From Candidatus Pacearchaeota archaeon (GTDB taxonomy: Archaea > Nanobdellota > Nanobdellia > Pacearchaeales > GW2011-AR1), in assembly GCA_049511795.1 (NCBI GenBank), contig JBEKXS010000001.1, positions 58,514-122,513 on the forward strand: DNA of 64,000 bases, read 5' to 3'. The number at the start of each line of letters is the position of its first letter. Within the stretch, counting starts at the first letter, position 1. The translations under genes were made by a program, and so were the position numbers. This document shows, piece after piece, positions 2,815-52,374 of this stretch. A model generated the notes under the pieces. The model did not search any database and had not been told where the DNA came from. It saw only the letters and a program-made list of their open reading frames with translations.

Positions 2815-4620
2815 TTACTCCATCGGTCTTCCAGACATTCTGCTTCCTTGAGCTCCAGGAGATTGTCCGCCAAGTTCTGAAGGAAGTCTTGAAAATCCTG
2901 AACCAAAAGTTTCATAATTTATCTGAGGAAGCCAATTTCCTGCAAGCCCTCCCTGATATCCTTGGTATAATCCAGATGCCTGAGACCAATAAGGCGCCAT
3001 TTTCATACTGTAAATAGGAGAACCTAAAGATTCAAGATTTTCTTGGAAAGGAGGTGTTCCGAAATGCTTCCACCAATGCCCCGCTTCAATGATTTTTCTT
3101 GCATCATATCCTTTTTCTCCAAGCTTTTCCATAATTTGTTTGAAGGGAACATTTCCCATTCCCATTGGGAGCTCTGTGTGCTCCATTCCAAAATTATCAG
3201 AAAGATGAATTTGTTTTAATACGGGAGCGACTTTTTGAGATTCTTTAACTATATCTTCTTCTGTATAACCATATCTTCTGAGAATATTTATATGTCCCAC
3301 ATCCCATGTCGCACCAATTAGTTTGTTTGCCTGTTTTCTTGCTTCATCTTCTGTCATACCAGATTTTTTGGCATTGTCTATGAAAACATCTCTTGTTTTC
3401 TCAACAACAGCTCTTACATCTTCTCCTTTGCTTAATGCATGTGTTGCAGGAGGATTTTCTATTACAAGAACAGGAGATGTATCTTTGTATTTGGAGTATG
3501 CTTGCCAAGCAGCGTTTCCAAAAGTTTCTGCAGTTTTTTTAATCTGAAATTCTTCTAAAGGAACCCATAATTTAGGAGATTTTTCTTCCAAAACTTCTGT
3601 CATTTGTCTTAATGCTTCTGAATATACTTTTGGATTAAGGTATCTATTCGGATTTATTTTGCCATCTTCCATTATCCCAACAGTTTTTCCATAATCCTCT
3701 GAAGCTTTTTTTAATTCGTCCATCCTTTTTTGGTCACCATCCATTTTTGCAAGCTCATATGCTTTGCTAAAAAGAGAATCAGCTGATATTCTTGCCTGGT
3801 CTATAAATTCAAATGCCGAATGTATTTTGCCAATTTCTGCCCTTTCTTCTTTTGAGAATTCGTTTGGATTAACTGCTCCTGCCTTAAGCTGTGTGAATTG
3901 TTGTATAAACATTGGGTGCACATCATGCATAATTCTTTCTGCGTTTTCCCTGTTAACTTCAACCTGAAAGAGCGAATTCTTCCATTCTGTATTGTTTGCG
4001 CTATCAAGGCGCATTTCAGGAGTTTTGGTAAATTCCTTTATTTCTGATCTACCTGGATGAAACTCCTTTTCTGCTTCCAAAGCTGTAATTCTTCCTGACT
4101 CTCTATTTATTGCCATAAGCTTCTGATATTCTTCATTTTCTTTTCTTTTAGCAGGTGGAAGAAGTTCTGAACCCTGTATCCCCTCTGATGTATGAAAATT
4201 TACAAAAATATTTCCTTGTGGATTCAAATCATGAGACCTTAACAAAGCTTCTGCAACTTTTCTTTCTGCAACCTCCCTCTCTGATTCACTAAATCCTGAG
4301 CGAGGGTCAATGCCTGCAACATCTATTACAGGTCCATGCATGGAAACATTAACTCCGGTCAGTTTTGCCATTCTATTAACTTCTCTTAAATGAGGCTGGG
4401 GCATAGAATCAAAAACTTCCGGAATAACAGCGGTTACGTCGACATTTCTTGCACCAGAGGAAATAGTTGTATTAATACTTTGCAAGATATTTGCAGTATC
4501 TGGTTTTGTCGTCATGCCAAGGCTTCCTGCCCTAGAATAAACATTGTCAGGAGGAACCATTGTAGAATAACCTCCCTGATAAATATCTGATATTGTATAA
4601 CCTCTTTTTTCCTCTGCCAT
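2815..4620 (-). CDS. Xylose-isomerase-like TIM-barrel protein (AP endonuclease family 2 / sugar-phosphate isomerase superfamily) with a large internal coiled-coil insertion and a G/Q-rich C-terminal tail
   Basis: Motifs VNVSMHGP, LVIENPPA (like EndoIV ENTAG), WDVGHINIL (like CxDTCH) and IHLSDNFG..HTELPMGMG (like HLNDS...H) occur in the canonical order. Confidence 0.35.
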   Translation of the reverse strand: MAEEKRGYTISDIYQGGYSTMVPPDNVYSRAGSLGMTTKPDTANILQSINTTISSGARNVDVTAVIPEVFDSMPQPHLREVNRMAKLTGVNVSMHGPVIDVAGIDPRSGFSESEREVAERKVAEALLRSHDLNPQGNIFVNFHTSEGIQGSELLPPAKRKENEEYQKLMAINRESGRITALEAEKEFHPGRSEIKEFTKTPEMRLDSANNTEWKNSLFQVEVNRENAERIMHDVHPMFIQQFTQLKAGAVNPNEFSKEERAEIGKIHSAFEFIDQARISADSLFSKAYELAKMDGDQKRMDELKKASEDYGKTVGIMEDGKINPNRYLNPKVYSEALRQMTEVLEEKSPKLWVPLEEFQIKKTAETFGNAAWQAYSKYKDTSPVLVIENPPATHALSKGEDVRAVVEKTRDVFIDNAKKSGMTEDEARKQANKLIGATWDVGHINILRRYGYTEEDIVKESQKVAPVLKQIHLSDNFGMEHTELPMGMGNVPFKQIMEKLGEKGYDARKIIEAGHWWKHFGTPPFQENLESLGSPIYSMKMAPYWSQASGLYQGYQGGLAGNWLPQINYETFGSGFSRLPSELGGQSPGAQGSRMSGRPME

Positions 4621-5343: not shown

Positions 5344-6810
5344 TTAAGTATAGCTTGGCATGCCGTGGGCTTTTTTGTAGACATCAAAAATTCTGAAATC
5401 TAGCTCTTTTGCTTTTTCCTCTGCAAGTGGCCTTAAAACATTTGCTTCTGCATATGATTCTTTTTCAGGCCACCAGGTTTCTTTTTTTTCTGGTCCTTCT
5501 TTTTTGCTTTCCTCTTTTCCTGATTTTTTGTTATATCCCCCAACAAGAGCCACGAAAGGATTTGATGTGTCTTTATTTTGTTCTTCTTGTAGCTCATCTT
5601 TGTCTTCCATGAAGAATTTTATTTCATCCTGAATTGCATCTAAACTTTGTCCTGTGGAGCCCTCGATAAGCTTCATGACATCATCAACATCTGAATTTTC
5701 AACTTCTTCCTTAAACTTTGCAAGTTCGTCGCTGTTTAATACGTAAGATTTGAATGTAACATCTGCGCGACCACCAAAAGCGTAATGAGACTGCTGAGCA
5801 ATCCTTTGTGGAATTCCTCTGAACTTGAATTCAACAAGAGTGCAGGCATAAAACTCTCTTTTCAATTTCTTTTTTTCAAATTCTTTAGGAAGATTTCCAG
5901 CAACAGCTTCTTCATCTGCCTTAATTTGTTGCTTTCCGAAAAGAGTGAGCTGAAGCATTATTGTATTAAATGTCTTGACAAGGGCAGGTTCTTTGTCCAT
6001 GTCTTTCATTTCAAGCTGGGCAGCTGCTTTCAAATATGGCTTTGCCCAACGAGCATAAAGTTTCAGTGAATTAACCTGACTTTGTAAGTATGATTTTTCA
6101 AGTTCATATCTTTTTCTTAATTCTTTTTCAGAATTATTCAGCCAATCATTAAATTCTAAGATTCTTGGTCTTAAAATTCTCTTAACTCTGTCATTCAAAT
6201 CAATTTTATCTATATCTTTTACATCTTTTGCAAAAAGGAATGCATCAATAAGTGTCTGAAATCCTGCTTGACCCAAAGCCATTGCCTTTATACTTGAATT
6301 TCCTTTTGTAATATCTACTTTGTCCATCCAAACTTGCTTTAAAGCGAGAATTGCAGCCTCGCGATTTTTTGTTTTTAAATCATCATATTGACTGAGCCTT
6401 ATTCTGAATTCTTTCAAGTCATAGACAAGGTTAAGCATGCTTCGCATAACAGTGTTGACATCTCCAAGAATTTTTGTTCCTTGCTGCTGCATTATTGTTG
6501 CCCTTTGCCCCATTTCTGAAAAATGGCCTGAACCAGGAGAAGATGCAAAATTATCCTCAAGCTTTTCTGTCTGAAGCCTGAAATCATTCATCATGTCAAG
6601 AATGAAGAAATAAATTGGTTCCAAAGTTTCTGATGAAGAATCATAAACAAGCCCATGCTGCGAAAGCGGCTGTTCTTCAACCTTGTCTGCAGGGATATCT
6701 GCAGGAGAACCATATTCTTTCAGAAGCTCTTTTGCGTTTTTAGCATATTTGCCAGGATTTATCTTTCCTATAATCTGCCCGATTGTAGCGACCATATACA
6801 GAATAAACAA
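5344..6810 (-). CDS. Hypothetical protein (488 aa) with extended coiled-coil-like central region
   Basis: Long ORF with good coding structure. First gene of a three-gene minus-strand unit. Confidence 0.4.
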   Translation of the reverse strand: MFILYMVATIGQIIGKINPGKYAKNAKELLKEYGSPADIPADKVEEQPLSQHGLVYDSSSETLEPIYFFILDMMNDFRLQTEKLEDNFASSPGSGHFSEMGQRATIMQQQGTKILGDVNTVMRSMLNLVYDLKEFRIRLSQYDDLKTKNREAAILALKQVWMDKVDITKGNSSIKAMALGQAGFQTLIDAFLFAKDVKDIDKIDLNDRVKRILRPRILEFNDWLNNSEKELRKRYELEKSYLQSQVNSLKLYARWAKPYLKAAAQLEMKDMDKEPALVKTFNTIMLQLTLFGKQQIKADEEAVAGNLPKEFEKKKLKREFYACTLVEFKFRGIPQRIAQQSHYAFGGRADVTFKSYVLNSDELAKFKEEVENSDVDDVMKLIEGSTGQSLDAIQDEIKFFMEDKDELQEEQNKDTSNPFVALVGGYNKKSGKEESKKEGPEKKETWWPEKESYAEANVLRPLAEEKAKELDFRIFDVYKKAHGMPSYT

Positions 6811-6872
6811 CTCTCATTTAAAAAATGTTCTTTGCCTCTAATAACTAAATTTAAAAATAAGTCCAGCCTATA

Positions 6873-7244
6873 GTGATTATGTCGTTTTTAGGTTTTGGAA
6901 AAAAGAAAAAGATTCTTGATTTGACAGAGGGTTACAGTCAAGCAGAGAAAGTAATGCAAGCAAACCAGGCAAAAAGAGATGCTATGACTTCAAGTTCTAC
7001 AGAAAACAGTTTTTCAGGAACAACCCCTTTCTCTGTTTTTGATTCTCCAGGTGCAATGAACTCTAGTTCAGGCTCAGACGATTTTGAAACAGCAGCAACG
7101 CCCGAAGAAAGGAAAAAAAGGCTTGCAAAAAGAATTTTGAACATGACAGAAAGAATCGAGGATTTGTCAAACCAGGTTTATCACTTGCAGCAAAGAGTTG
7201 AAGTTTTGGAAAAGAAGGCAAACATAACAAGCTCTGAGTATTAA
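6873..7244 (+). CDS. Hypothetical protein with Ser-rich centre and C-terminal coiled coil
   Basis: 123 aa. C-terminal heptad-like LSNQVYHLQQRVEVLEKK. Confidence 0.3.
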   Translation: MIMSFLGFGKKKKILDLTEGYSQAEKVMQANQAKRDAMTSSSTENSFSGTTPFSVFDSPGAMNSSSGSDDFETAATPEERKKRLAKRILNMTERIEDLSNQVYHLQQRVEVLEKKANITSSEY

Positions 7245-7275
7245 GATTTATTAATTAAGATTCTTTATCTCAATT

Positions 7276-7896
7276 ATGATATTAAAAACCCAAAGATTAA
7301 TCTTAAGAAAGCCGAAAATTTCTGACTGGAAGGACATTGTTGAAGGGTTAAAGGATGTTAGCGTTGCAGAGGGTTTGGAAGAAATCCCCCATCCATATAA
7401 GAAAAAAGATGCATTAATTTGGATAAAAAAAACGATTGAAAGATGGAAAAAAAAGAAAAAAGAAGTTTATACTTTTATGATAGAACTAAAATCGGAAAAA
7501 AAGATTATTGGTGGTATAGGACTACATAAAGTTGATAAATTTGTAGGAACTGCGGGAACAGGCTCATGGATAAACAAAAAATACTGGAGAAAAGGTTATG
7601 TTACAGAAGCTAAAATTGCTGTGAATGAATTTGCTTTTAACAAGTTAAAATTAAGAAAGCTTTATTCCTATGTTTATACAGATAACAAGGCCTCAAATAG
7701 AACACAGAAGAGTATGGAGTATAAATTTGAAGGCTGCTCAAAAAAAGGGTCAAGAACCAGAGCAACTGGAAAGATAAAAGATGTCAATATATATGGTCTT
7801 TTCAAAGAAGATTGGAAAAGAAATCTTCCAAAACTTAAGAAGAAATTAAATGAAAAAATAAGAAAACTGGAAAAAAATGACAATGAAAGATTTTGA
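7276..7896 (+). CDS. GNAT-family N-acetyltransferase (RimJ/RimL-like)
   Basis: N-terminal RLILRKPKISD, then a GGIGLHKVD and GYVTEA...AFNKLKLRKL acetyl-CoA binding pattern. Confidence 0.5.
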   Translation: MILKTQRLILRKPKISDWKDIVEGLKDVSVAEGLEEIPHPYKKKDALIWIKKTIERWKKKKKEVYTFMIELKSEKKIIGGIGLHKVDKFVGTAGTGSWINKKYWRKGYVTEAKIAVNEFAFNKLKLRKLYSYVYTDNKASNRTQKSMEYKFEGCSKKGSRTRATGKIKDVNIYGLFKEDWKRNLPKLKKKLNEKIRKLEKNDNERF

Positions 7897-9094
7897 CAAA
7901 AAAATAAAGGCATATGCACTGAAAAATGCAATTGCACATGATGGGAAAGCACAGACAGGCAGTGTTATTTCTTCGCTTTTCAACGACGGCTTGAAACCAG
8001 AAGATGTAAAAAAATATGCAAAAGAAATCAATAAGACTATTGAAGAAGTAAATAAATTACCTTTGGATAAGCAAAAAGAGGAATTTGAACAGTTTCAAAA
8101 AGTTGTCAGCCACAGAGAAGGGCGTGAGGGTCTTCCTGAACTTCCTGGAGCTAAAAAAGGAAAAGTAATAATGCGATTTGCTCCATCGCCATCTGGTCCA
8201 TTCCATGTTGGTCATGCTCTTACAGGCAGCTTGTCATATCTTTTTGTGAAGAAATACGGCGGAATATTTTATGTAAGAATTGAAGACACAAATCCTGAGA
8301 ATATTTATCCTCAGGCATATGACATGATAAAAAAGGAATCAAAGTGGCTTTTCCCTGGGAAATTCCTGAAAATAATAATTCAGTCAGACAGAATGAAAAT
8401 TTATTACAATCTGGCGGAAAAATTGATAAAAAAAGATGTTGCATATGTCTGCACATGCTCACAAGAAGAATTCAAGAAATTTGTAGATAATAAAAAAGAA
8501 TGCCCTTGCAGAGGAATCAGCCCCAAAGAAAACATGGAGCGATGGAAGAAAATGCTTGACAAAAAAGGCTACAAAGAAGGTGAAGCTGTTTTAAGATTCA
8601 AATCAGACATGCATGACAAGAACCCTGCAATGCGTGATTTTCCGCTTGCAAGAATAAATTTAGCAGCACATGCAAGGCAGGGAATCAAATATAGGGTTTG
8701 GCCATTGATGAATTTGGCTGTAACTGCAGATGATATTGATTTGAAGATGACTCATATAATAAGGGCAAAAGATCATAGGGACAATGCAGAAAGGCAGAAA
8801 AGAATTTACATTGCGCTTGGATTGAAGGCAAAGGTTCCCTGGACAGGATTTTTGGGAAGAATAAAATTCACAGATTTGGAGCTTTCTGCGACAAAAATGC
8901 GACAGGCAATTGACGCAGGAGAATACAAAGGATGGGATGACCCAAGGCTTCCAACAATTGCATCAATCATGAAGAAAGGGTACAAGCCTTCTGCTTTCTG
9001 GAAGTTTGCAGAGAGAATCGGGCTGTCTGAAAATGACAAAGTGATGGACAAGCATGAATTTTTCAGGCTTTTGGATGATTTTAATCGAGGATAA
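7877..9094 (+). CDS. gltX: Glutamyl-tRNA synthetase-like class I aaRS catalytic core with a ~95-aa N-terminal extension. No C-terminal anticodon-binding domain.
   Basis: RFAPSPSGPFHVGHA HIGH motif and a Glx-RS catalytic-domain pattern. Only 405 aa. The ORF ends where the anticodon-binding domains normally begin. Confidence 0.55.
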   Translation: MTMKDFDKKIKAYALKNAIAHDGKAQTGSVISSLFNDGLKPEDVKKYAKEINKTIEEVNKLPLDKQKEEFEQFQKVVSHREGREGLPELPGAKKGKVIMRFAPSPSGPFHVGHALTGSLSYLFVKKYGGIFYVRIEDTNPENIYPQAYDMIKKESKWLFPGKFLKIIIQSDRMKIYYNLAEKLIKKDVAYVCTCSQEEFKKFVDNKKECPCRGISPKENMERWKKMLDKKGYKEGEAVLRFKSDMHDKNPAMRDFPLARINLAAHARQGIKYRVWPLMNLAVTADDIDLKMTHIIRAKDHRDNAERQKRIYIALGLKAKVPWTGFLGRIKFTDLELSATKMRQAIDAGEYKGWDDPRLPTIASIMKKGYKPSAFWKFAERIGLSENDKVMDKHEFFRLLDDFNRG

Positions 9095-44617: not shown

Positions 44618-44830
44618 ATGCATATTCTACAACCAAAACATACCAAACTAAAAGAGAAAGAGTCCCAGGAATTACTTGCAAAACTCAATATTTCTAAAGC
44701 TCAGCTGCCAAAAATACTTTCAACAGACCCTGCATTGCCTGAAGAATGTGCTGTTGGCGATGTCATAAAGATAGAAAGGAAAGAGCATGACAGCGATAAA
44801 ACAACCCCATATTACAGAGTTGTTGTTTAA
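44618..44830 (+). CDS. rpoH: RNA polymerase subunit H (Rpb5 homolog)
   Basis: 70 aa. ...HELVPKH-like HILQPKHTKL and C-terminal DPVARYYG-like TTPYYRVVV pattern. Immediately upstream of rpoB. Confidence 0.7.
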   Translation: MHILQPKHTKLKEKESQELLAKLNISKAQLPKILSTDPALPEECAVGDVIKIERKEHDSDKTTPYYRVVV

Positions 44831-44875: not shown

Positions 44876-47800
44876 ATGAAACCAGGAAAACACCTAATTG
44901 TGAAAAAGTATCTTGAAGAACACTCTCTGGTAGAAAGTAATATTATTTCTTTCAATAATTTCGTTGAAAAAAGAATGCAGGAAATCGTCGATGAAATTGC
45001 AGGAACAATAAACAACGAAGATTTTGAAATAACACTTGGAAAAATAGAAATTGGGAAACCAAAAGTCATAGAAGCTGACGGAAGTTCCTCGCTTATAACG
45101 CCTCAGGAAGCAAAATTAAGGGATTTAACATATGCTGCTCCTGTAAGCCTTGAATTGACAGTAAAAAAAGACGACCAAGTTGACTCAGAAACAGTTGAAA
45201 TCGGAAAAATTCCTATAATGGTAAGGAGTAAATTCTGCAACACATATGGAATGACAAAAGATCAGCTTATAGAAACATATCACGACCCATTGGACCCTGG
45301 TGGATATTTTGTCATAAAGGGAAATGAGCGTGTCATGGTAATGGCAGAAGACCTTGCAGAAAACCAGCCATTTATAGAAGATAATTCAAAAGGAGATTTA
45401 ACACTAAAATTGTTCTCATCAAAGGGAACTTACAGAATTCCTGTCCTTATTTCTGAAAACAAGGAAGGAATAATTGATGTTTCATTCAGCAAATTCAAAG
45501 ATGTTCCTGCTGTCGTAATCCTTAAAGCTCTTGGACTGATAAAAGAGTCAGACATTGCAAAATACATCGGAAAGGAAACAGACGCCGTAATTGTCAATTT
45601 GTATGAATTTGCGCACATTGCAACAAAAGAAGATGCAATGCTTTACATTTCAGAGAAAACAAGCCTTCAAGGAACAAAGAAAGAAATTCTTGACAGAGTT
45701 AAGCAGAGAATTGATTCATATCTTTTCCCACACATAGGGCAAAAGAAAGAAGACAGGATAAAAAAAGCTATAACTTTATGCAAGCTCATAAAGCAATTCC
45801 TTATTTCAAAGGAAAATCCAAAATTAAGAACAGATAAGGACCATTATGCAAATAAAAGGGTCAGGCTTTCTGGAGACCTTCTTGCAACTTTGTTCAGGGT
45901 TAATCTAGGAATTTTGATAAGAGATATCCAATACTCATTGCAAAAATCAGCGAAGAGAAAAAAATTCTTTTCAATAAAAATAATTGCAAAATCAACTCTC
46001 TTTTCGCATAGAGTAGAATCAGCAATTGCAACAGGAAGCTGGACAGGAGAAAGAAGCGGAATAACACAGAACATGGATAAGACAAATTATCTTGCAACTA
46101 TTTCACAGCTTCAGCGTGTTTCATCTATGCTTGCAAGTGACCAGGAAAATTTCGCTGCAAGAACATTGCATCCAACTCATTACGGAAGATTCTGCCCTAT
46201 TGAAACTCCTGAAGGAACAGAAATCGGACTCAGAAAAAATCTTGCAATTCTCAGTAGAGTTTCAACAAGAACAGACCTTAGCGAGGAAAAATTCCTGAAA
46301 GACCTTTCTATTCATGGTCTTGAGGTTGAAGGAACAGACGGAACAGAAGTTTTCCTTAACGGTATTTTCATTGGGATGGTAAAAAATCCAAAAGAGTTCA
46401 CAATGGCAATAAGGGAAAAAAGAAGGAAAGGGGAATTGCCTATTGAAATGAACATAAGGCATGATGAAAATTTCCAGACAGTAAATGTTTACACAGAACC
46501 TGGAAGAGTTTTAAGACCCTTGATAATTGTCGACAATGGTGTTTCAAGATTGAAGAATGAGCACATGGTAAGAGTCGAAAGCAATGAAATAGGATGGAAA
46601 GACCTTTTAAGAGAAGGAGTTATTGAATATATAGATGCTGCAGAGGAAGAAGAAGCGCTTGTTGCATTGCATGAAGAAGAATTAACTCACGAGCACACTC
46701 ACCTTGAAATTGACCCAACAGACTTGTTCGGTGTCATAACAAGCCTTGTTCCATATTCAAATCACGATCAAAGTTCCAGACTTAACAGAGGAAGTAAGAC
46801 ACAAAAACAGGCTCTTGGTCTTTATGCTGCAAATTATTTGACAAGGCTTGACACAGATGTTTCCATTCTTCAATATCCCCAAAAACCAATTGTAAGAAGT
46901 TTTGTTTATGATACATTGCAGGCATATCCTGCAGGACAAAATCTTGTCGTTGCTGTGATGACTCATGAAGGTTACAACATGGAAGATGCACTTGTTTTCA
47001 ACAAAGGTAGTCTTGATCGTGGAGTGGGAAGAAGTTTTTATTTTAGGCCTTACAGCGCTGTTGAAATGAATTATGCAGGTGGATTAAAAGATGAAATAGT
47101 CATTCCTGAAAAAGATTCTTCAGGTTACAGGACAGAGGAAAGCTACAAGCATCTTGAATCAGATGGAATTGTTTCTCCTGAAGCAGAAATTGACGAGGGA
47201 GAAGTCATGATTGGAAAAGTTTCTCCACCAAAATTCCTTTCAGAGGCAAGAGAAATTTCTGTAAGGACAAAGAAAGAGTCCAGTGTTGCAATGAAGCAGG
47301 AAGAAAAAGGAATTGTTGAAGGTGTTTTCATAACAGAAGACGACGATGGAAACAAAATTGTCCAGGTTAAAACAAGAGACCAAAGAATTCCAGAGCTTGG
47401 AGACAAATTCGCAACATCTCACGGACAAAAAGGAGTTATTGGATTAATTGTTGATGAAGAAGATGTTCCATTCACTTCAAAAGGAATAAGGCCAGATGTA
47501 ATGTTTAATCCACATGGTCTTCCAAGCAGAATGACAGTTGGTTATCTTCTTGAATTGCTTGCAGGAAAAGTAGGATGTTTGAAGGGAGAAGTCATGGACG
47601 GAACAGCCTTCTCTGGAACAAGCAAAAAAGAACTTGAAGAAGCTTTGAAAGAGCTTGGATTCAGGTATGATGGAAAAGAAACAATGTATTCTGGAATAAC
47701 TGGAAAGAAAATGCAGACAAAAATCTTCGTCGGTAATTTATATTACTTGAAGCTTAAATATATGGTTGGAAATAAGCTTCATGGAAGAGCTTCTGGTAAA

Positions 47801-48130
47801 ATTGCTTTACTTACAAGACAGCCTGTTGAAGGTCGTTCTCGTGGTGGAGCATTGAGGCTTGGAGAGATGGAGCAACAGGCAATGGTTGCACATGGAGCCT
47901 CTCTTCTTTTGAAAGAAAGATATGATTCTGACAAAGTTGTTCTTCATATCTGCACAAAATGTGGAGCTTTGGCAATAGAAGACAATATCAGGGACAAAAC
48001 AGTCTGCCCTATTTGCAATTCAGAGGAAGTCGAGCCTGTTGAAGTATCATATGCATTCAAGCTTTTAATTGAAGAACTCCAAGGACTTCACATTCACACA
48101 AACTTTGACCTGAAAAATAAGTATGAATAA
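44876..48130 (+). CDS. rpoB: RNA polymerase subunit B (unsplit)
   Basis: 1084 aa. Conserved Rpb2 blocks (GRFCPIETPEGTEIGL, NYAGGLKD-region, GQKGVIG, C-terminal Cys4 zinc motif CTKCG...CPIC). Confidence 0.9.
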   Translation: MKPGKHLIVKKYLEEHSLVESNIISFNNFVEKRMQEIVDEIAGTINNEDFEITLGKIEIGKPKVIEADGSSSLITPQEAKLRDLTYAAPVSLELTVKKDDQVDSETVEIGKIPIMVRSKFCNTYGMTKDQLIETYHDPLDPGGYFVIKGNERVMVMAEDLAENQPFIEDNSKGDLTLKLFSSKGTYRIPVLISENKEGIIDVSFSKFKDVPAVVILKALGLIKESDIAKYIGKETDAVIVNLYEFAHIATKEDAMLYISEKTSLQGTKKEILDRVKQRIDSYLFPHIGQKKEDRIKKAITLCKLIKQFLISKENPKLRTDKDHYANKRVRLSGDLLATLFRVNLGILIRDIQYSLQKSAKRKKFFSIKIIAKSTLFSHRVESAIATGSWTGERSGITQNMDKTNYLATISQLQRVSSMLASDQENFAARTLHPTHYGRFCPIETPEGTEIGLRKNLAILSRVSTRTDLSEEKFLKDLSIHGLEVEGTDGTEVFLNGIFIGMVKNPKEFTMAIREKRRKGELPIEMNIRHDENFQTVNVYTEPGRVLRPLIIVDNGVSRLKNEHMVRVESNEIGWKDLLREGVIEYIDAAEEEEALVALHEEELTHEHTHLEIDPTDLFGVITSLVPYSNHDQSSRLNRGSKTQKQALGLYAANYLTRLDTDVSILQYPQKPIVRSFVYDTLQAYPAGQNLVVAVMTHEGYNMEDALVFNKGSLDRGVGRSFYFRPYSAVEMNYAGGLKDEIVIPEKDSSGYRTEESYKHLESDGIVSPEAEIDEGEVMIGKVSPPKFLSEAREISVRTKKESSVAMKQEEKGIVEGVFITEDDDGNKIVQVKTRDQRIPELGDKFATSHGQKGVIGLIVDEEDVPFTSKGIRPDVMFNPHGLPSRMTVGYLLELLAGKVGCLKGEVMDGTAFSGTSKKELEEALKELGFRYDGKETMYSGITGKKMQTKIFVGNLYYLKLKYMVGNKLHGRASGKIALLTRQPVEGRSRGGALRLGEMEQQAMVAHGASLLLKERYDSDKVVLHICTKCGALAIEDNIRDKTVCPICNSEEVEPVEVSYAFKLLIEELQGLHIHTNFDLKNKYE

Positions 48131-48137
48131 ATAAAAA

Positions 48138-48443
48138 ATGAACAAAACAGAAAGAATTAAGGATATGAGAATGGTTTCGACATTAGTTTACGATAGAAAA
48201 TACACTGCTGCTAATGGCAAAGTTATGGATGAAGTAACAGCATGGGTTGGTTTACAATCTCCTTTTGTTGGATTTTCTGGAGATTTTGATTATTATGCAC
48301 TTAATAGAGAACAAACACAAGTTGTAAGGGTTAATCCATCTGAAAGAACAATAGAATTATCAAAAGATGTTGATACAGACCAAAAAGGAACTATTGAATA
48401 TATACTAAAAACGGAAATAAGGGGACCTGACCTAGCTGCTTAA
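48138..48443 (+). CDS. Hypothetical protein (101 aa) inserted between rpoB and rpoA
   Basis: Tightly packed (8 nt after rpoB, 8 nt before rpoA). No similarity recognised. Confidence 0.4.
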   Translation: MNKTERIKDMRMVSTLVYDRKYTAANGKVMDEVTAWVGLQSPFVGFSGDFDYYALNREQTQVVRVNPSERTIELSKDVDTDQKGTIEYILKTEIRGPDLAA

Positions 48444-48451
48444 AAACAAAA

Positions 48452-51400
48452 ATGGCAAAAACAATCAGAAAAAAAATAAAATCAATAAGCTTTTCATTGC
48501 TTAGCCCTGAGAAAATAAAAAAGCTCTCTGTTGCGAAAATAGTTACGCCAGAACTTTATGATATAGATGGTTATCCTGTCGACGGTGGTTTGATGGATTT
48601 AAGATTGGGAGCAATTGATCCGGGTGTAAGATGTAGAACATGTGGTGGAAGACTGAAAGAATGCCTTGGACACCCCGGAAGTATTGACCTCGCAAGATCT
48701 TTAATACATTTAAAATATGTTCCAATGATTGAGCTCGGATTACGTTGTTTCTGCAAACAATGCGGAAAATTAATGCTTTCTGAAAAAGACCTTGCAAAAT
48801 ACACGCCAAGCCAGAGAATAAAGAAAGCAAAGGATGTAAAGAAATGCCCACACTGCAATACTGTTCAGGAAAAAATAAAGCTTGACAAGCCAACAACATT
48901 CTACAGAGGAAAAACAAGAATATTCCCAACAGAGATAAGAGATACCCTTGTTAATATTCCAGATGAAGAACTTAAAAAAATAGGAATGAATCCTCACAAT
49001 TTCAGGCCAGAATGGGGTGTACTCACAATTCTTCTTGTTCCTCCTGTAACAGTAAGGCCTTCAATTATTCTTGAATCAGGAGAAAGAAGTGAGGATGATT
49101 TAACTCACAAGCTTTCAGATATAATAAGAGCAAATCAGAGACTTTGGGAAAATCTTAATGCTGGAGCGCCAGAGGTTATTATCGAGGATTTGTGGGATTT
49201 GCTTCAATTCCATGTAACAACATTCTTTGATAACACTGTTACAAGAATTCCTCCTGCAAGGCACAGGTCAGGACAGCCATTGAAAACAATCACAGAAAGA
49301 ATAAAGGGTAAGGAAGGAAGAATCAGGAAAAATCTTGCAGGTAAAAGAGTTAATTATTCTGGAAGAACTGTTATCTCTCCTGATCCATCAATGCAGATAA
49401 ATGAAGTTGGAATTCCTTTTGAAATTGCAAAAATTGTAACAGTCGCTGAAACAGTAACTGACCTAAACATTGACAGGCTGAAAAAAAAGGTAGAAAGTGC
49501 AGAAGTTTATCCTGGAGCAAATTATGTAATAAGACCTGATGGAAAACGTAAAAAAATAACGCCAGAATTGAAAGAAGAAATAATCAACGAGCTTGTTCCT
49601 GGATATCAGGTTGAAAGGCATCTTGAAAACGGAGACATTGTTCTTTTCAACCGTCATCCTAGCCTTCACAAAGGAAGCTTGATGGCGCATTATGTAAAAG
49701 TCCTTCCTGGAAGAACATTCAGGCTTCACCCTGCTGCAAAAACACCTTACAATGCTGATTTCGACGGTGATGAAATGAACATTCACAGCCCACAGACAGA
49801 GGAAGCAAGAGCAGAGGCAAAGATTTTGCTTGAAGTAAAGAAAAATCTCATTTCTCCGAAGAATAATACAAACTGGATTGGTTGTCTTGGGGATGCAATA
49901 ACAGGAGATTATCTCATGGGTTTAGAAGAATTTTCAAGAGAAGATGCAAACCAGCTTCTTTACAGCTCTGGAATCGATGGAGAAGTTTCAAAGAAAACAA
50001 TCAGTGGAATAGAATTATTTTCAAAAATACTTCCTAAAATTGATTTCTCAGGCGAAACAGTAAAAATAAAGGACGGACAGATAACAAAGGGTATTCCTGA
50101 CAAGACTCTTTTCGGCGATGAAGATGGTGTCTTGATAAAGGATATAGACAAGAAATTCGGAAGAAATGTTGCATTTGAATCAATAAGAAAAGCGTTCAAT
50201 ATTGGCAAGAATTATCTTACAGGAAGGGGAATAAGCTTCTCTGTAGATGATTTCGATGTTGACCAAAAAATATTTGATATGTCTGAAGAAATTGTCAAAA
50301 AAGCAGAGGAAAAAACAACAGAGATAATCGACGAATACAACAAAGGGACTCTTGAAATCATACAAGGAAAAAGTCTTGAAGAATCAAGGGAAATAAAAAT
50401 TCTTAAGGTTCTTAATGAAGTAAGAACAAAAATAGGAGAAATTGTTAAGGAAGAATTCCCAAAGGACAGTCCTGTCACTTACATGATAAAATCCGGAGGC
50501 GGAGGAAACATGCTTAACATAACACAAATGGCTTGCTGTGTAGGGCAACAGGACTTGGAAGGAAGAAGAATTGATTTGGGATACAATGATAGAACACTTT
50601 CATTTTTCAAGAAAGGGGATTTGAATCCAAAAGCAAAGGGTTTCATAAGAAGCGCATTCATGAAAGGTTTGAAGCCAGAAGAATTTTTCTTCCAGGCAAT
50701 AACAGGAAGATCTTCACTTATGGATACTGCTCTTAGAACGCCAAGGTCTGGTTATTTGTACAGAAGGCTTGCAAATGCACTTCAGGACTTAAGGATGGAA
50801 TATGACAGCACTGTTAGAGACAGCAACAACAACATAATTCAGTTTATTTACGGCGACGATGGAATAGATGTTTCAAAGCTTCATCTTGGAGGAAAACTCG
50901 ACCCTGGTGAAGCAATAGGAATAATTACTGCTCAGAGCTTTGGGGAACCATCAACGCAAATGGTATTGAGAACATTCCACTTTGCAGGTGTCTCTGAAAT
51001 GCAGGTTACGCAAGGACTTCCAAGGCTTATTGAAATATTTGATGCAAGAAAAAAGCCATCAAGCCCTAAAATGGAAATCTATCTGAAAAAAGAATTCAAC
51101 AATGAAAAAGACGCAAGAGTATTCGCAGAAAAAATAAAGGAAGTCACTGTCAGCGATTTTGCATCTGAAATAAACATTGATTTCACTGACAAAAAAATCG
51201 AAGTCAAGATTGACAAGGAAGGATTGCATCAAAGTCATACTTCTGTAAAGAAAATTGTTGAAAGGCTTAAGGAACTTGGATTCTCATGCAATGAAAAAAC
51301 AGATTCAATATCTATCAAAGCGCCGGGAGAGATCAGTTTCAAGGAACTTTACAAGCTAAAAGAAAAATTGAAAAAAACAATTATTTCAGATATAAAGGGA

Positions 51401-51943
51401 GTAAAGCAGATTCTCATCGTAAAAAGAGCAGAAGATTACATTGTCATGACATTGGGAACAAACTTAAAGAGAATATTGGAACTGAAAGAAGTAAACACTC
51501 AAAGAACAATTTCAAATGACCTTCATGAAGTTGCAGATGTTCTTGGCATCGAGGCTGCAAGGCAATTGATAATAAATGAAATACAGGAAGTTTTGAACAC
51601 ACAGGGCCTTGATATAGACAAGAGGCACTTGAAACTTGTCTCTGATGCTATGACAAACACCGGAGAAGTAAAAGGTGTGACAAGAATAGGAATAATCGCG
51701 CAAAAATCCTCGATACTTGCAAGAGCAACATTCGAAACACCTGTAAAGCAATTTGTAAATGCGACGATAAAGGGAAACAAGGACCAGCTTACAAGCGTAA
51801 TTGAAAATGTCATTCTCAACCAGCCAATTCCTGTTGGAACAGGACTACCAGGACTTTTAGTAAAGGTTGTCGGACCTCTCGTAAAGGAAGAATCCAAGAA
51901 GAAGTTTGCAAAAAAAGAAGTTGTAGACGAGGTTGCCAAGTAA
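48452..51943 (+). CDS. rpoA: RNA polymerase subunit A with A' and A'' fused in one ORF
   Basis: N-terminal zinc motifs and the NADFDGDEMN active site (A' part). Bridge-helix block FFFQAITGRSSLMDTALRTPRSGYLYRRL continues without a stop into the trigger-loop block GEAIGIITAQSFGEPSTQMVLRTFHFAGV and the A''-type C-terminus. Confidence 0.85.
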   Translation: MAKTIRKKIKSISFSLLSPEKIKKLSVAKIVTPELYDIDGYPVDGGLMDLRLGAIDPGVRCRTCGGRLKECLGHPGSIDLARSLIHLKYVPMIELGLRCFCKQCGKLMLSEKDLAKYTPSQRIKKAKDVKKCPHCNTVQEKIKLDKPTTFYRGKTRIFPTEIRDTLVNIPDEELKKIGMNPHNFRPEWGVLTILLVPPVTVRPSIILESGERSEDDLTHKLSDIIRANQRLWENLNAGAPEVIIEDLWDLLQFHVTTFFDNTVTRIPPARHRSGQPLKTITERIKGKEGRIRKNLAGKRVNYSGRTVISPDPSMQINEVGIPFEIAKIVTVAETVTDLNIDRLKKKVESAEVYPGANYVIRPDGKRKKITPELKEEIINELVPGYQVERHLENGDIVLFNRHPSLHKGSLMAHYVKVLPGRTFRLHPAAKTPYNADFDGDEMNIHSPQTEEARAEAKILLEVKKNLISPKNNTNWIGCLGDAITGDYLMGLEEFSREDANQLLYSSGIDGEVSKKTISGIELFSKILPKIDFSGETVKIKDGQITKGIPDKTLFGDEDGVLIKDIDKKFGRNVAFESIRKAFNIGKNYLTGRGISFSVDDFDVDQKIFDMSEEIVKKAEEKTTEIIDEYNKGTLEIIQGKSLEESREIKILKVLNEVRTKIGEIVKEEFPKDSPVTYMIKSGGGGNMLNITQMACCVGQQDLEGRRIDLGYNDRTLSFFKKGDLNPKAKGFIRSAFMKGLKPEEFFFQAITGRSSLMDTALRTPRSGYLYRRLANALQDLRMEYDSTVRDSNNNIIQFIYGDDGIDVSKLHLGGKLDPGEAIGIITAQSFGEPSTQMVLRTFHFAGVSEMQVTQGLPRLIEIFDARKKPSSPKMEIYLKKEFNNEKDARVFAEKIKEVTVSDFASEINIDFTDKKIEVKIDKEGLHQSHTSVKKIVERLKELGFSCNEKTDSISIKAPGEISFKELYKLKEKLKKTIISDIKGVKQILIVKRAEDYIVMTLGTNLKRILELKEVNTQRTISNDLHEVADVLGIEAARQLIINEIQEVLNTQGLDIDKRHLKLVSDAMTNTGEVKGVTRIGIIAQKSSILARATFETPVKQFVNATIKGNKDQLTSVIENVILNQPIPVGTGLPGLLVKVVGPLVKEESKKKFAKKEVVDEVAK

Positions 51944-51999
51944 ACCTAGTATACTGAGTATAACATTAATTTTAAAAAGGAGAGGGATTAAATTATTTT

Positions 52000-52170
52000 A
52001 TGGACACTATTTTAGGTATTGTAATTTTAGATGCGGTTCTATTACTTATTGGTGTGTTCATGTCATGGAAAGAGTTGAATAAAAAACATACAGATGTAGT
52101 CTGGAAGCTAGTTGAATATGTAACAATGGCACTTGTGGGTTATCTCCTCGCAACAGGGAGGATAGTATAA
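52000..52170 (+). CDS. Small membrane protein (56 aa) with GGAGAGGG RBS
   Basis: Hand-found ORF MDTILGIVILDAVLLLIGVFMSW... SD-like sequence 14 nt upstream. Confidence 0.3.
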   Translation: MDTILGIVILDAVLLLIGVFMSWKELNKKHTDVVWKLVEYVTMALVGYLLATGRIV

Positions 52171-52171
52171 A

Positions 52172-52288
52172 ATGACAAATATAATTACTATTATCGGAAT
52201 ATGTGTTTTTGTCTTTGGTGGAATAGTCAAAAACAAAGAATTATTGGGTTTAGGAACTGTCTTGATTATACTAGGAGCTTTTATTTAA
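52172..52288 (+). CDS. Small membrane protein (38 aa) with GGGAGG RBS
   Basis: MTNIITIIGICVFVFGGIVKNKELLGLGTVLIILGAFI. Starts 2 nt after the previous stop. Confidence 0.25.
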   Translation: MTNIITIIGICVFVFGGIVKNKELLGLGTVLIILGAFI

Positions 52289-52374
52289 TTTTTGTGTAAA
52301 AATAAATTAACAAAGATTTATAAGACAAATAATTTTAAAATTCATATCAAGAGGTTAAAAATTCAATAAACAAA

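Follow-up and report, generated by a model that had tools for sequence, protein, structure and literature searches.

The stretch of DNA analysed here, hereafter the window, comprises 64,000 nt of contig JBEKXS010000001.1 from a Candidatus Pacearchaeota archaeon (assembly GCA_049511795.1, positions 58,514 to 122,513, forward strand) and carries the operon block that encodes the large subunits of RNA polymerase (RNAP). Between rpoB and rpoA, and on the strand of both, lies an open reading frame (ORF) of 101 aa that starts with ATG and had been noted when the sequence was read without database searches. That sequence-only reading gave 8 nt of spacer on each side, which holds for the downstream side, while the upstream spacer measures 7 nt (Table 1). 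We find that this ORF is a real gene of a new, undescribed family, which is restricted to a Woesearchaeota-type clade of DPANN archaea and seen only at the rpoB-rpoA junction, and that this junction is a hypervariable slot, specific to this place in the operon within the clade. In the following, labels of the form L### denote fetched contigs from metagenomes or relatives, P#### homologous proteins, WIN the window, and A1 and A2 the family alignments.

Table 1. Features at and around the rpoB-rpoA junction, in window coordinates.
Feature	Position	Strand	Basis
rpoH (Rpo5), first gene of the operon block	44618..44830	+	Pfam RNA_pol_Rpb5_C, E 9.6e-19
rpoB (Rpo2), unsplit, 1084 aa; its stop codon is the left edge of the slot	44876..48130	+	Pfam Rpb2 domains 1-7
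7-nt A-rich spacer ATAAAAA, rpoB stop to ORF ATG	48131..48137	+	sequence
101-aa ORF, ATG start, predicted TBP-like fold (subject of this study)	48138..48443	+	
N-terminal extension, residues 1-17	48138..48188	+	alignments A1 and A2; closest subgroup only (P0002, P0003, P0004, P0020)
Predicted folded domain, residues 18-95	48189..48422	+	b1 18-23, a1 27-40, b2 43-47, b3 50-54, b4 62-66, b5 71-75, a2 80-95 (AlphaFold2)
C-terminal motif K-T-E-I-R-G-x-D, residues 91-98	48408..48431	+	conservation; end of helix a2 into start of tail
8-nt A-rich spacer AAACAAAA, ORF stop to rpoA ATG	48444..48451	+	sequence
rpoA (Rpo1), unsplit, 1163 aa; its start codon is the right edge of the slot	48452..51943	+	Pfam Rpb1 domains 1-5, one ORF

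The genes on either side of the ORF are intact. Both have full sets of Pfam domains and normal termini, and a split-off piece or duplicate of RpoB or RpoA was rejected on these grounds; A' and A'' are fused in the window's rpoA, and both large subunits are likewise unsplit in all related loci. No run of five or more T residues occurs between positions 47040 and 50602. This makes co-transcription of the ORF with rpoB and rpoA plausible, and we regard it as most likely, in line with the sequence-only reading, which had taken the ORF for an operon-strand gene; nothing resembling a T-run terminator separates it from either neighbour.

Searched on its own with a word-indexed method, the protein matched only itself, on a short JGI contig. 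An exhaustive HMMER search of 1.84 billion representatives returned 17 proteins beyond the self-match, 16 of which measure 87–100 aa and match over their full length at 27–55% identity; P0016, also among the 17, was set aside as an unrelated repeat protein. In all, about 30 intact homologues of similar length make up the family. The only database copy of the exact gene (positions 31-249 of L001, JGI Ga0427942_025471) is annotated as 72 aa because only 30 nt of that contig precede an internal ATG; the public call is thus truncated. Residues 3-17 align in the closest homologues, which speaks for translation from the ATG at 48138. Conservation is found in the blocks Y18, YDEV, YYxLD, V(I/V)RxN, RxIE(L/I)S and IxHI(L/I)KTEIRGxD, and at the single residues Y18, D31, R64, I72, E73, S75, V78, I86 and I89. 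The arginine of the C-terminal motif is encoded by AGG in the window and by CGA in L010, which suggests that selection acts on the protein and not on the DNA, and the T-E-I-R-G motif looks like a docking motif. The window protein has an isoelectric point (pI) of 5.1.

No matching family was found in Pfam, NCBIfam, PHROGs or PADLOC or by a PDB sequence-profile search, and the family was absent from the viral contigs, BFVD and PHROGs. A hidden Markov model (HMM) of the family matched nowhere else in the 64-kb window and gave no off-slot match in about 750 kb of fetched loci. One match in a scan of genome_contigs (L002) was discarded as chance: it was seeded by DFDYYALN and runs antisense to a bacterial pyridine nucleotide-disulphide oxidoreductase gene (Pfam Pyr_redox_2) on a high-GC contig.

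From the single sequence, AlphaFold2 produced a poor model, with a predicted local distance difference test (pLDDT) score of 44. When supplied with a 17-sequence alignment of the family, it arrived at a pLDDT of 89.7 and a predicted template modelling score (pTM) of 0.78, with values falling towards the C-terminus (block mean of 61 for residues 91-100 and 46 in the last block). Structure prediction, a check that the sequence-only reading had proposed, thus yielded a high-confidence TBP-like model. According to this model, the protein is one TBP-like (helix-grip) domain of beta-alpha-beta4-alpha type plus the conserved C-terminal motif: two helices pack on one face of a five-stranded antiparallel beta-sheet, and the succession b-a-b-b-b-b-a is that of one TBP repeat (PMC3597702). 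Foldseek searches with the model against PDB and BFVD gave nothing significant; many TBP chains were among the weak PDB matches. The best structural matches were RNase HIII and other helix-grip proteins, not TBP. At the sequence level, none of the 17 members matched Pfam TBP (PF00352) at E values up to 10, hhalign assigned a probability of 0.07% to A1 against TBP of P. woesei (whose sequence was entered by hand), and a PDB profile search found no relation to a TBP-type family. Given the lack of a sequence-level link, we use 'TBP-like' for the fold alone and refrain from assigning the protein to the TBP superfamily. In the model, Y18, R64, E73 and S75 alternate with conserved core hydrophobics on b1, b4 and b5 and should therefore face the open side of the sheet, where they would form a conserved polar patch. 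In TBP and in RNase HIII, the open sheet face is the one that binds the duplex.

In other genomes, family members sit directly upstream of rpoA in 12 out of 12 cases looked up (the truncated self-match P0001, P0003, P0006, P0012, P0013, P0014, P0015, P0017, P0018, P0019, P0020 and P0021). Wherever the contig is long enough, rpoB is also found upstream, with the single exception of L098, in which the ORF upstream of the family copies has no rpoB match. In L003, three further genes stand between rpoB and the family member, which still abuts rpoA. These occupy positions 6720-8086 and comprise a 55-aa half copy of the family, a 75-aa ORF and a 322-aa protein with an OB-fold plus an HD domain; the same locus has a 41-aa ORF between rpoH and rpoB (3186-3311). 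Tandem pairs of divergent family copies occur in L016 (1128-1805) and L098 (276-881), and could hint at heterodimers.

The extent to which the slot is used emerged from a wider sample of relatives. With the first 173 aa of RpoA as anchor, we retrieved 80 metagenomic loci at 75–92% identity, which together with the earlier loci, and after removal of duplicates, gave 81 junctions. The distance from rpoB to rpoA ranges from -8 to 1738 nt; it is at least 150 nt in 57 of the 81 (about 70%) and at most 60 nt, with no insert, in 22 (about 27%). The assumption of the sequence-only reading that rpoH, rpoB and rpoA are normally contiguous thus fails in this clade. As controls from the same loci, the rpoH-rpoB junction reached 150 nt or more in 2 of 44 and the rpoA-nusA junction in 10 of 44. 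The inserts are coding on the operon strand: the longest open frame covers a median of 94% of the gap on the operon strand versus 47% on the opposite strand, and the operon strand has the longer one in 52 of 55 loci. Occupied slots hold one to four small operon-strand genes, mostly single ORFs of 60–125 aa.

By BLAST/HMM comparison, the 89 distinct gap ORFs form 57 clusters, which would be too high a count of independent origins in the case of extreme divergence. With 18 members, the TBP-like family leads, followed by the smaller multi-member families F2, F3, F4, F5, F7, F8, F9, F10, F11 and F12 and by many singletons. We considered F2 (L037, L056, L071b and L049) as a diverged relative of the TBP-like family, which hhalign left unsupported (probability 3%), the fold level aside. 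About 18 of the 89 are Cys-rich mini-proteins with at least four cysteines in 57–118 aa, many of which share a C-P-x(4-6)-C pattern, often CPxxxxC; they were found in L020, L025, L029, L038, L040, L053, L061, L069, L075, L079, L080, L085, L088, L090, L092 and L094, and may represent a second, very divergent recurring class of occupants, perhaps metal-binding. Two slot ORFs contain transmembrane-like sequences, and L044 (1951-3436, operon strand) holds a complete type II restriction-modification pair, namely an N6_N4 DNA methylase and a BsaWI-like endonuclease. In full-text literature searches, we came across no account of DPANN archaea with genes placed between rpoB and rpoA. A 2026 paper lists PIN77523 as Rpo5 and PIN77526 as Rpo1 of Woesearchaeota, which, if accession numbers run consecutively along the contig, would leave room for one extra gene after rpoB there, although this is only a hint.

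Slot content turns over among close relatives. We built a neighbour-joining tree from 600 aa of polymerase flank for 62 loci, which represent 61 distinct lineages at 98% identity, and the window falls into a tight clade with L017, L020, L022, L004 and L018. Within this clade, the slot holds the 101-aa TBP-like protein in the window, nothing in L017, a Cys-rich protein of 84 aa in L020, members of family F5 in L022 (124 aa) and L018 (127 aa), and in L004 a TBP-like protein of 95 aa that is 36% identical to that of the window. L004 and L018 have flanks that are 96.8% identical and unrelated inserts, and WIN and L017 differ by a clean indel made up of the ORF and its spacers. The boundaries are sharp: up to the rpoB stop codon the DNA is about 85% identical, immediately beyond it no alignment is possible, and identity is regained precisely at the rpoA ATG. 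When carriers are compared in 28 pairs, the identity of family members does not follow that of the flanks (Spearman rho -0.03). For instance, the ORFs most similar to that of the window (52–55%) are found in L003 and L097, where the polymerase shares only about 83% identity with that of the window. Such discordance can stem from horizontal exchange or, just as well, from ancient tandem duplicates of the kind seen in L016 and L098, of which different lineages lost different copies. We looked for a recombination tract beside the slot (WIN versus L003 and others) and saw no local rise in identity.

The junctions themselves have a common anatomy. Where rpoB and rpoA are adjacent, they are joined as ...GAATAA-A-ATG, and in most occupied slots TAA-A-ATG or a close variant stands between rpoB and the first insert and again between the last insert and rpoA; most relatives have this arrangement, which is tighter than the 7-nt spacer between rpoB and the ORF in the window. 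It is the geometry expected for termination-reinitiation coupling, although a short target duplication would account for it equally well. No integrase, transposase or longer flanking repeat was seen in the loci, TAA-A-ATG being the only sequence repeated at both ends. The RpoB C-terminus (...NKYE*) is conserved in 80 relatives. The end of rpoB, ...TATGAATAAAATG, contains an out-of-frame ATG (e.g. L013 683, L021 3687, L069 2329), which explains the spurious 'MNKM' or 'MSKM' starts of many ORF calls; in these, translation most probably begins at the second ATG, which directly follows the rpoB stop codon.

The gene is constrained, and yet it accumulates non-synonymous change about ten times faster than rpoA. 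By the Nei-Gojobori method, the ratio of non-synonymous to synonymous rates (dN/dS, or omega) is 0.25–0.64 for the ORF, compared to 0.04–0.10 for the first 300 codons of rpoA in the same pairs, so that the omega of the family is 6–16 times that of rpoA. The least saturated pair gives 0.64. Other slot families have an omega of about 0.3, too. Contigs with an identical protein were uninformative in this respect, since their DNA is identical as well. In codon composition, the ORF is unlike its operon neighbours, with a GC content at third codon positions (GC3) of 0.157 versus 0.28–0.30 in rpoH, rpoB and rpoA.

As to the wider surroundings, the host is a DPANN archaeon with a low GC content (34.9%), and the window's RpoB is 89% identical to that of a metagenome-assembled genome labelled Candidatus Woesearchaeota (GCA_016177265.1). 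Downstream of rpoA, Pfam identifies a nusA-like KH gene followed by the genes for S12 and S7, and then comes a 729-aa ORF at the usual position of EF-2. A gap of 431 nt (51944-52374) separates the rpoA stop from the nusA-like gene. The usual archaeal occupant of this interval is rpl30e. In the window, its sole ORF has 56 aa (52000-52170) and matches nothing in Pfam, and runs of five T residues occur at 52206 and 52289. Judged by the 10 of 44 relatives mentioned above, the rpoA-nusA junction is a second, weaker variable position. L010 has a 103-aa ORF (6471-6782) with no Pfam match between S12 and S7, which are adjacent in the window, and other conserved junctions may take inserts occasionally.

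Taken together, we favour the reading that the ORF encodes a dispensable accessory protein which, under conflict or in particular niches, acts on the polymerase or on its template, and we put its probability at roughly 45%. Under this reading, the gene would share a transcript with rpoB and rpoA, and its translation would be coupled to theirs across stop and start codons that lie 7–8 nt apart, so that the protein would be made roughly in step with the large subunits of the polymerase. The putative patch on the open face (Y18, R64, E73 and S75) and the C-terminal tail may then bind the polymerase or a nearby nucleic-acid duplex, and the protein would modulate or protect transcription against a virus, a host or a competitor as an accessory factor, not as a core subunit. 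What speaks for this is the exclusive position of the family in the slot, the hypervariability and turnover of the slot, fast evolution under constraint, the coupling geometry, and the conserved surface residues and tail. Several points weigh against it. With a median pI of 6.2, the family lies between near neutral and acidic, which disfavours generic DNA binding, and the placement of the RNase HIII match in the TBP-like N-terminal domain of that enzyme was deduced from other matches. The absence of the protein from sister lineages makes it dispensable, with which a function unrelated to transcription is equally compatible. Finally, the restriction-modification pair and the OB-HD protein indicate that the slot accepts cargo with no link to the polymerase.

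The last two points lead to a rival that we consider possible, if on the unlikely side, namely that the junction is a hot spot for small accessory genes (for defence, toxin-like or niche-specific) and that the TBP-like protein has no role in transcription. Essential, conserved neighbours would guarantee expression and inheritance of such cargo and may provide homology arms for its exchange. The number of clusters among the slot ORFs, the finds in L044 and L003, the sharply bounded presence and absence among sister lineages, a family divergence that is not tied to that of the polymerase, the high dN/dS and the deviating GC3 all accord with it. Ordinary mobile cargo, however, usually appears at several loci, whereas this family was never met outside the slot in its 12 look-ups; in addition, we saw no integrase or transposase and, TAA-A-ATG apart, no flanking repeat, identity next to the slot gave no sign of a recombination tract, and PADLOC, PHROGs, viral contigs and viral structures gave no match. 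The selfish insertion that the sequence-only reading had envisaged therefore suits the slot as a whole, as exemplified by the pair in L044, better than it suits this family. The other suggestion of that reading, a lineage-specific RNAP accessory factor, stands insofar as a real gene keeps a fixed place, and falls insofar as a stable lineage-wide subunit was meant, the 22 loci with adjacent rpoB and rpoA having none. A true lineage-specific subunit, stoichiometric in the enzyme like Rpo13 or Rpo8, is accordingly quite improbable. It would be encoded with other subunits, and the ORF does lie between the two largest, on their strand, stop to start within 7–8 nt and with no T-run in between; its position is kept in all family members looked up, and the tail motif could dock on a partner. 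Such a subunit should also occur throughout the lineage and evolve with the enzyme, but the protein is absent from close relatives with 93–97% identical flanks (L017, L018, L020 and L022), family members are only 34–42% identical where the C-terminal regions of RpoB are 89–93% identical to that of the window, their divergence is uncorrelated with that of the flanks, omega exceeds that of rpoA as described, and dozens of unrelated proteins are found at the same place.

It is very doubtful that the ORF serves merely as a translational-coupling spacer, in which any translated ORF would set the RpoB:RpoA ratio and the sequence would be largely free to drift. The recurrence of TAA-A-ATG at both ends of most inserts, as well as at the direct rpoB-rpoA junction, and the extreme diversity of insert sequences would fit, but across about 30 members the family keeps its predicted fold, its surface residues and an omega below 1, other slot families have comparably low values, and 22 of the 81 lineages manage with no ORF there. 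More doubtful still is a divergent monopartite TBP homologue on promoter DNA, possibly a dimer that rebuilds the TBP-like saddle. The topology of one TBP repeat, the TBP chains that recur among the weak Foldseek matches, the tandem copies in L016 and L098 and the existence in Thermococcales of monopartite TBP-domain proteins of 91–97 aa (PMC3597702) would be in keeping with it; neither Pfam TBP nor P. woesei TBP, however, resembles the family in sequence or profile, the structurally best matches lie elsewhere among the helix-grip proteins, and the protein is dispensable and hypervariable. That the ORF is spurious or decaying, for which the low GC3 and the omega of 0.64 in the least saturated pair might be cited, is effectively refuted by about 30 intact homologues of similar length, a high-confidence fold and the preference for the operon strand in the slot. 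The sequence-only reading had named homologues at unrelated loci only, and a dN/dS near 1, as signs of such an ORF, but every homologue looked up is directly upstream of rpoA and all dN/dS values are below 1. A bolder version of our preferred reading, speculative and rather unlikely as it stands, would make the entire slot a dedicated, fast-turnover expression site for small proteins that act on RNAP, whether as modulators, as decoys or as factors conferring immunity to transcription inhibitors from viruses or hosts. An arms race would then exchange or replace such alternatives, among them the TBP-like family and the Cys-rich mini-proteins, and the window ORF would be an RNAP- or template-binding protein of a new family, possibly a TBP domain that stands alone as a relic or arose by convergence.

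Structurally, the window protein comes closest to the N-terminal, substrate-binding (TBP-like) domain of RNase HIII from bacteria, at a sequence identity of 7–8%. There, the domain is fused to a catalytic one, whereas the window protein is archaeal and free-standing and has an extra conserved tail. Conceptually, it is closest to the monopartite TBP-domain proteins of Thermococcales and to TbpA of Halobacteria, which are stand-alone proteins of about 91–97 aa with one TBP-type domain and unknown function (Brindefalk et al. 2013, PMC3597702). They are archaeal and of similar size; yet they were retrieved by Pfam TBP (PF00352) and profile searches (PMC3597702), while the present family has no detectable TBP sequence relation, and a link between them and a polymerase operon is not reported. 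Rpo13 and Rpo8 are small, polymerase-associated and confined to some archaeal lineages (PMC3479171, PMC2675907), and none of the sources consulted places either of them between rpoB and rpoA. The window protein is likewise small and lineage-restricted but, unlike them, it is absent from sister lineages and a candidate partner of RNAP. The folds of Rpo13 and Rpo8 differ from that of the window protein, and both are stable within their lineages.

Among known genomic arrangements, the slot is reminiscent of the integration and recombination hot spots that are flanked by core genes in bacteria and of phage 'moron' insertions, all of which hold variable, often unrelated cargo at a fixed position, restriction-modification systems being typical. 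Sharp boundaries and presence or absence among close relatives are shared with the rpoB-rpoA slot. The latter differs, however, in that it lies inside a tightly coupled essential operon with ORFs running stop to start, and in that no integrase, att site, own promoter or terminator was seen. Med18 and Med20 of the Mediator head also come to mind. They are eukaryotic, about twice the size of the window protein, and form a heterodimer within Mediator; the resemblance may reflect only the common helix-grip architecture.

In summary, the finding is larger than one orphan ORF, since the occupant of the window belongs to the commonest family of a hypervariable small-gene slot. The order rpoH-rpoB-rpoA is among the most conserved gene arrangements of archaea, and yet variable small genes stand exactly between the catalytic subunits in about 70% of the sampled lineages of this clade. 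With the rpoH-rpoB junction closed by contrast, this points to a layer of accessory biology on the transcription machinery of these symbionts that has so far gone unrecognised. The present work supplies a new protein family with a confident TBP-like model, more than 50 clusters of small ORFs that share one very specific expression context, and a natural system in which gene entry and replacement inside an essential operon can be followed. Should slot proteins indeed bind the polymerase, they would provide new tools for, and regulators of, archaeal and eukaryote-like transcription.
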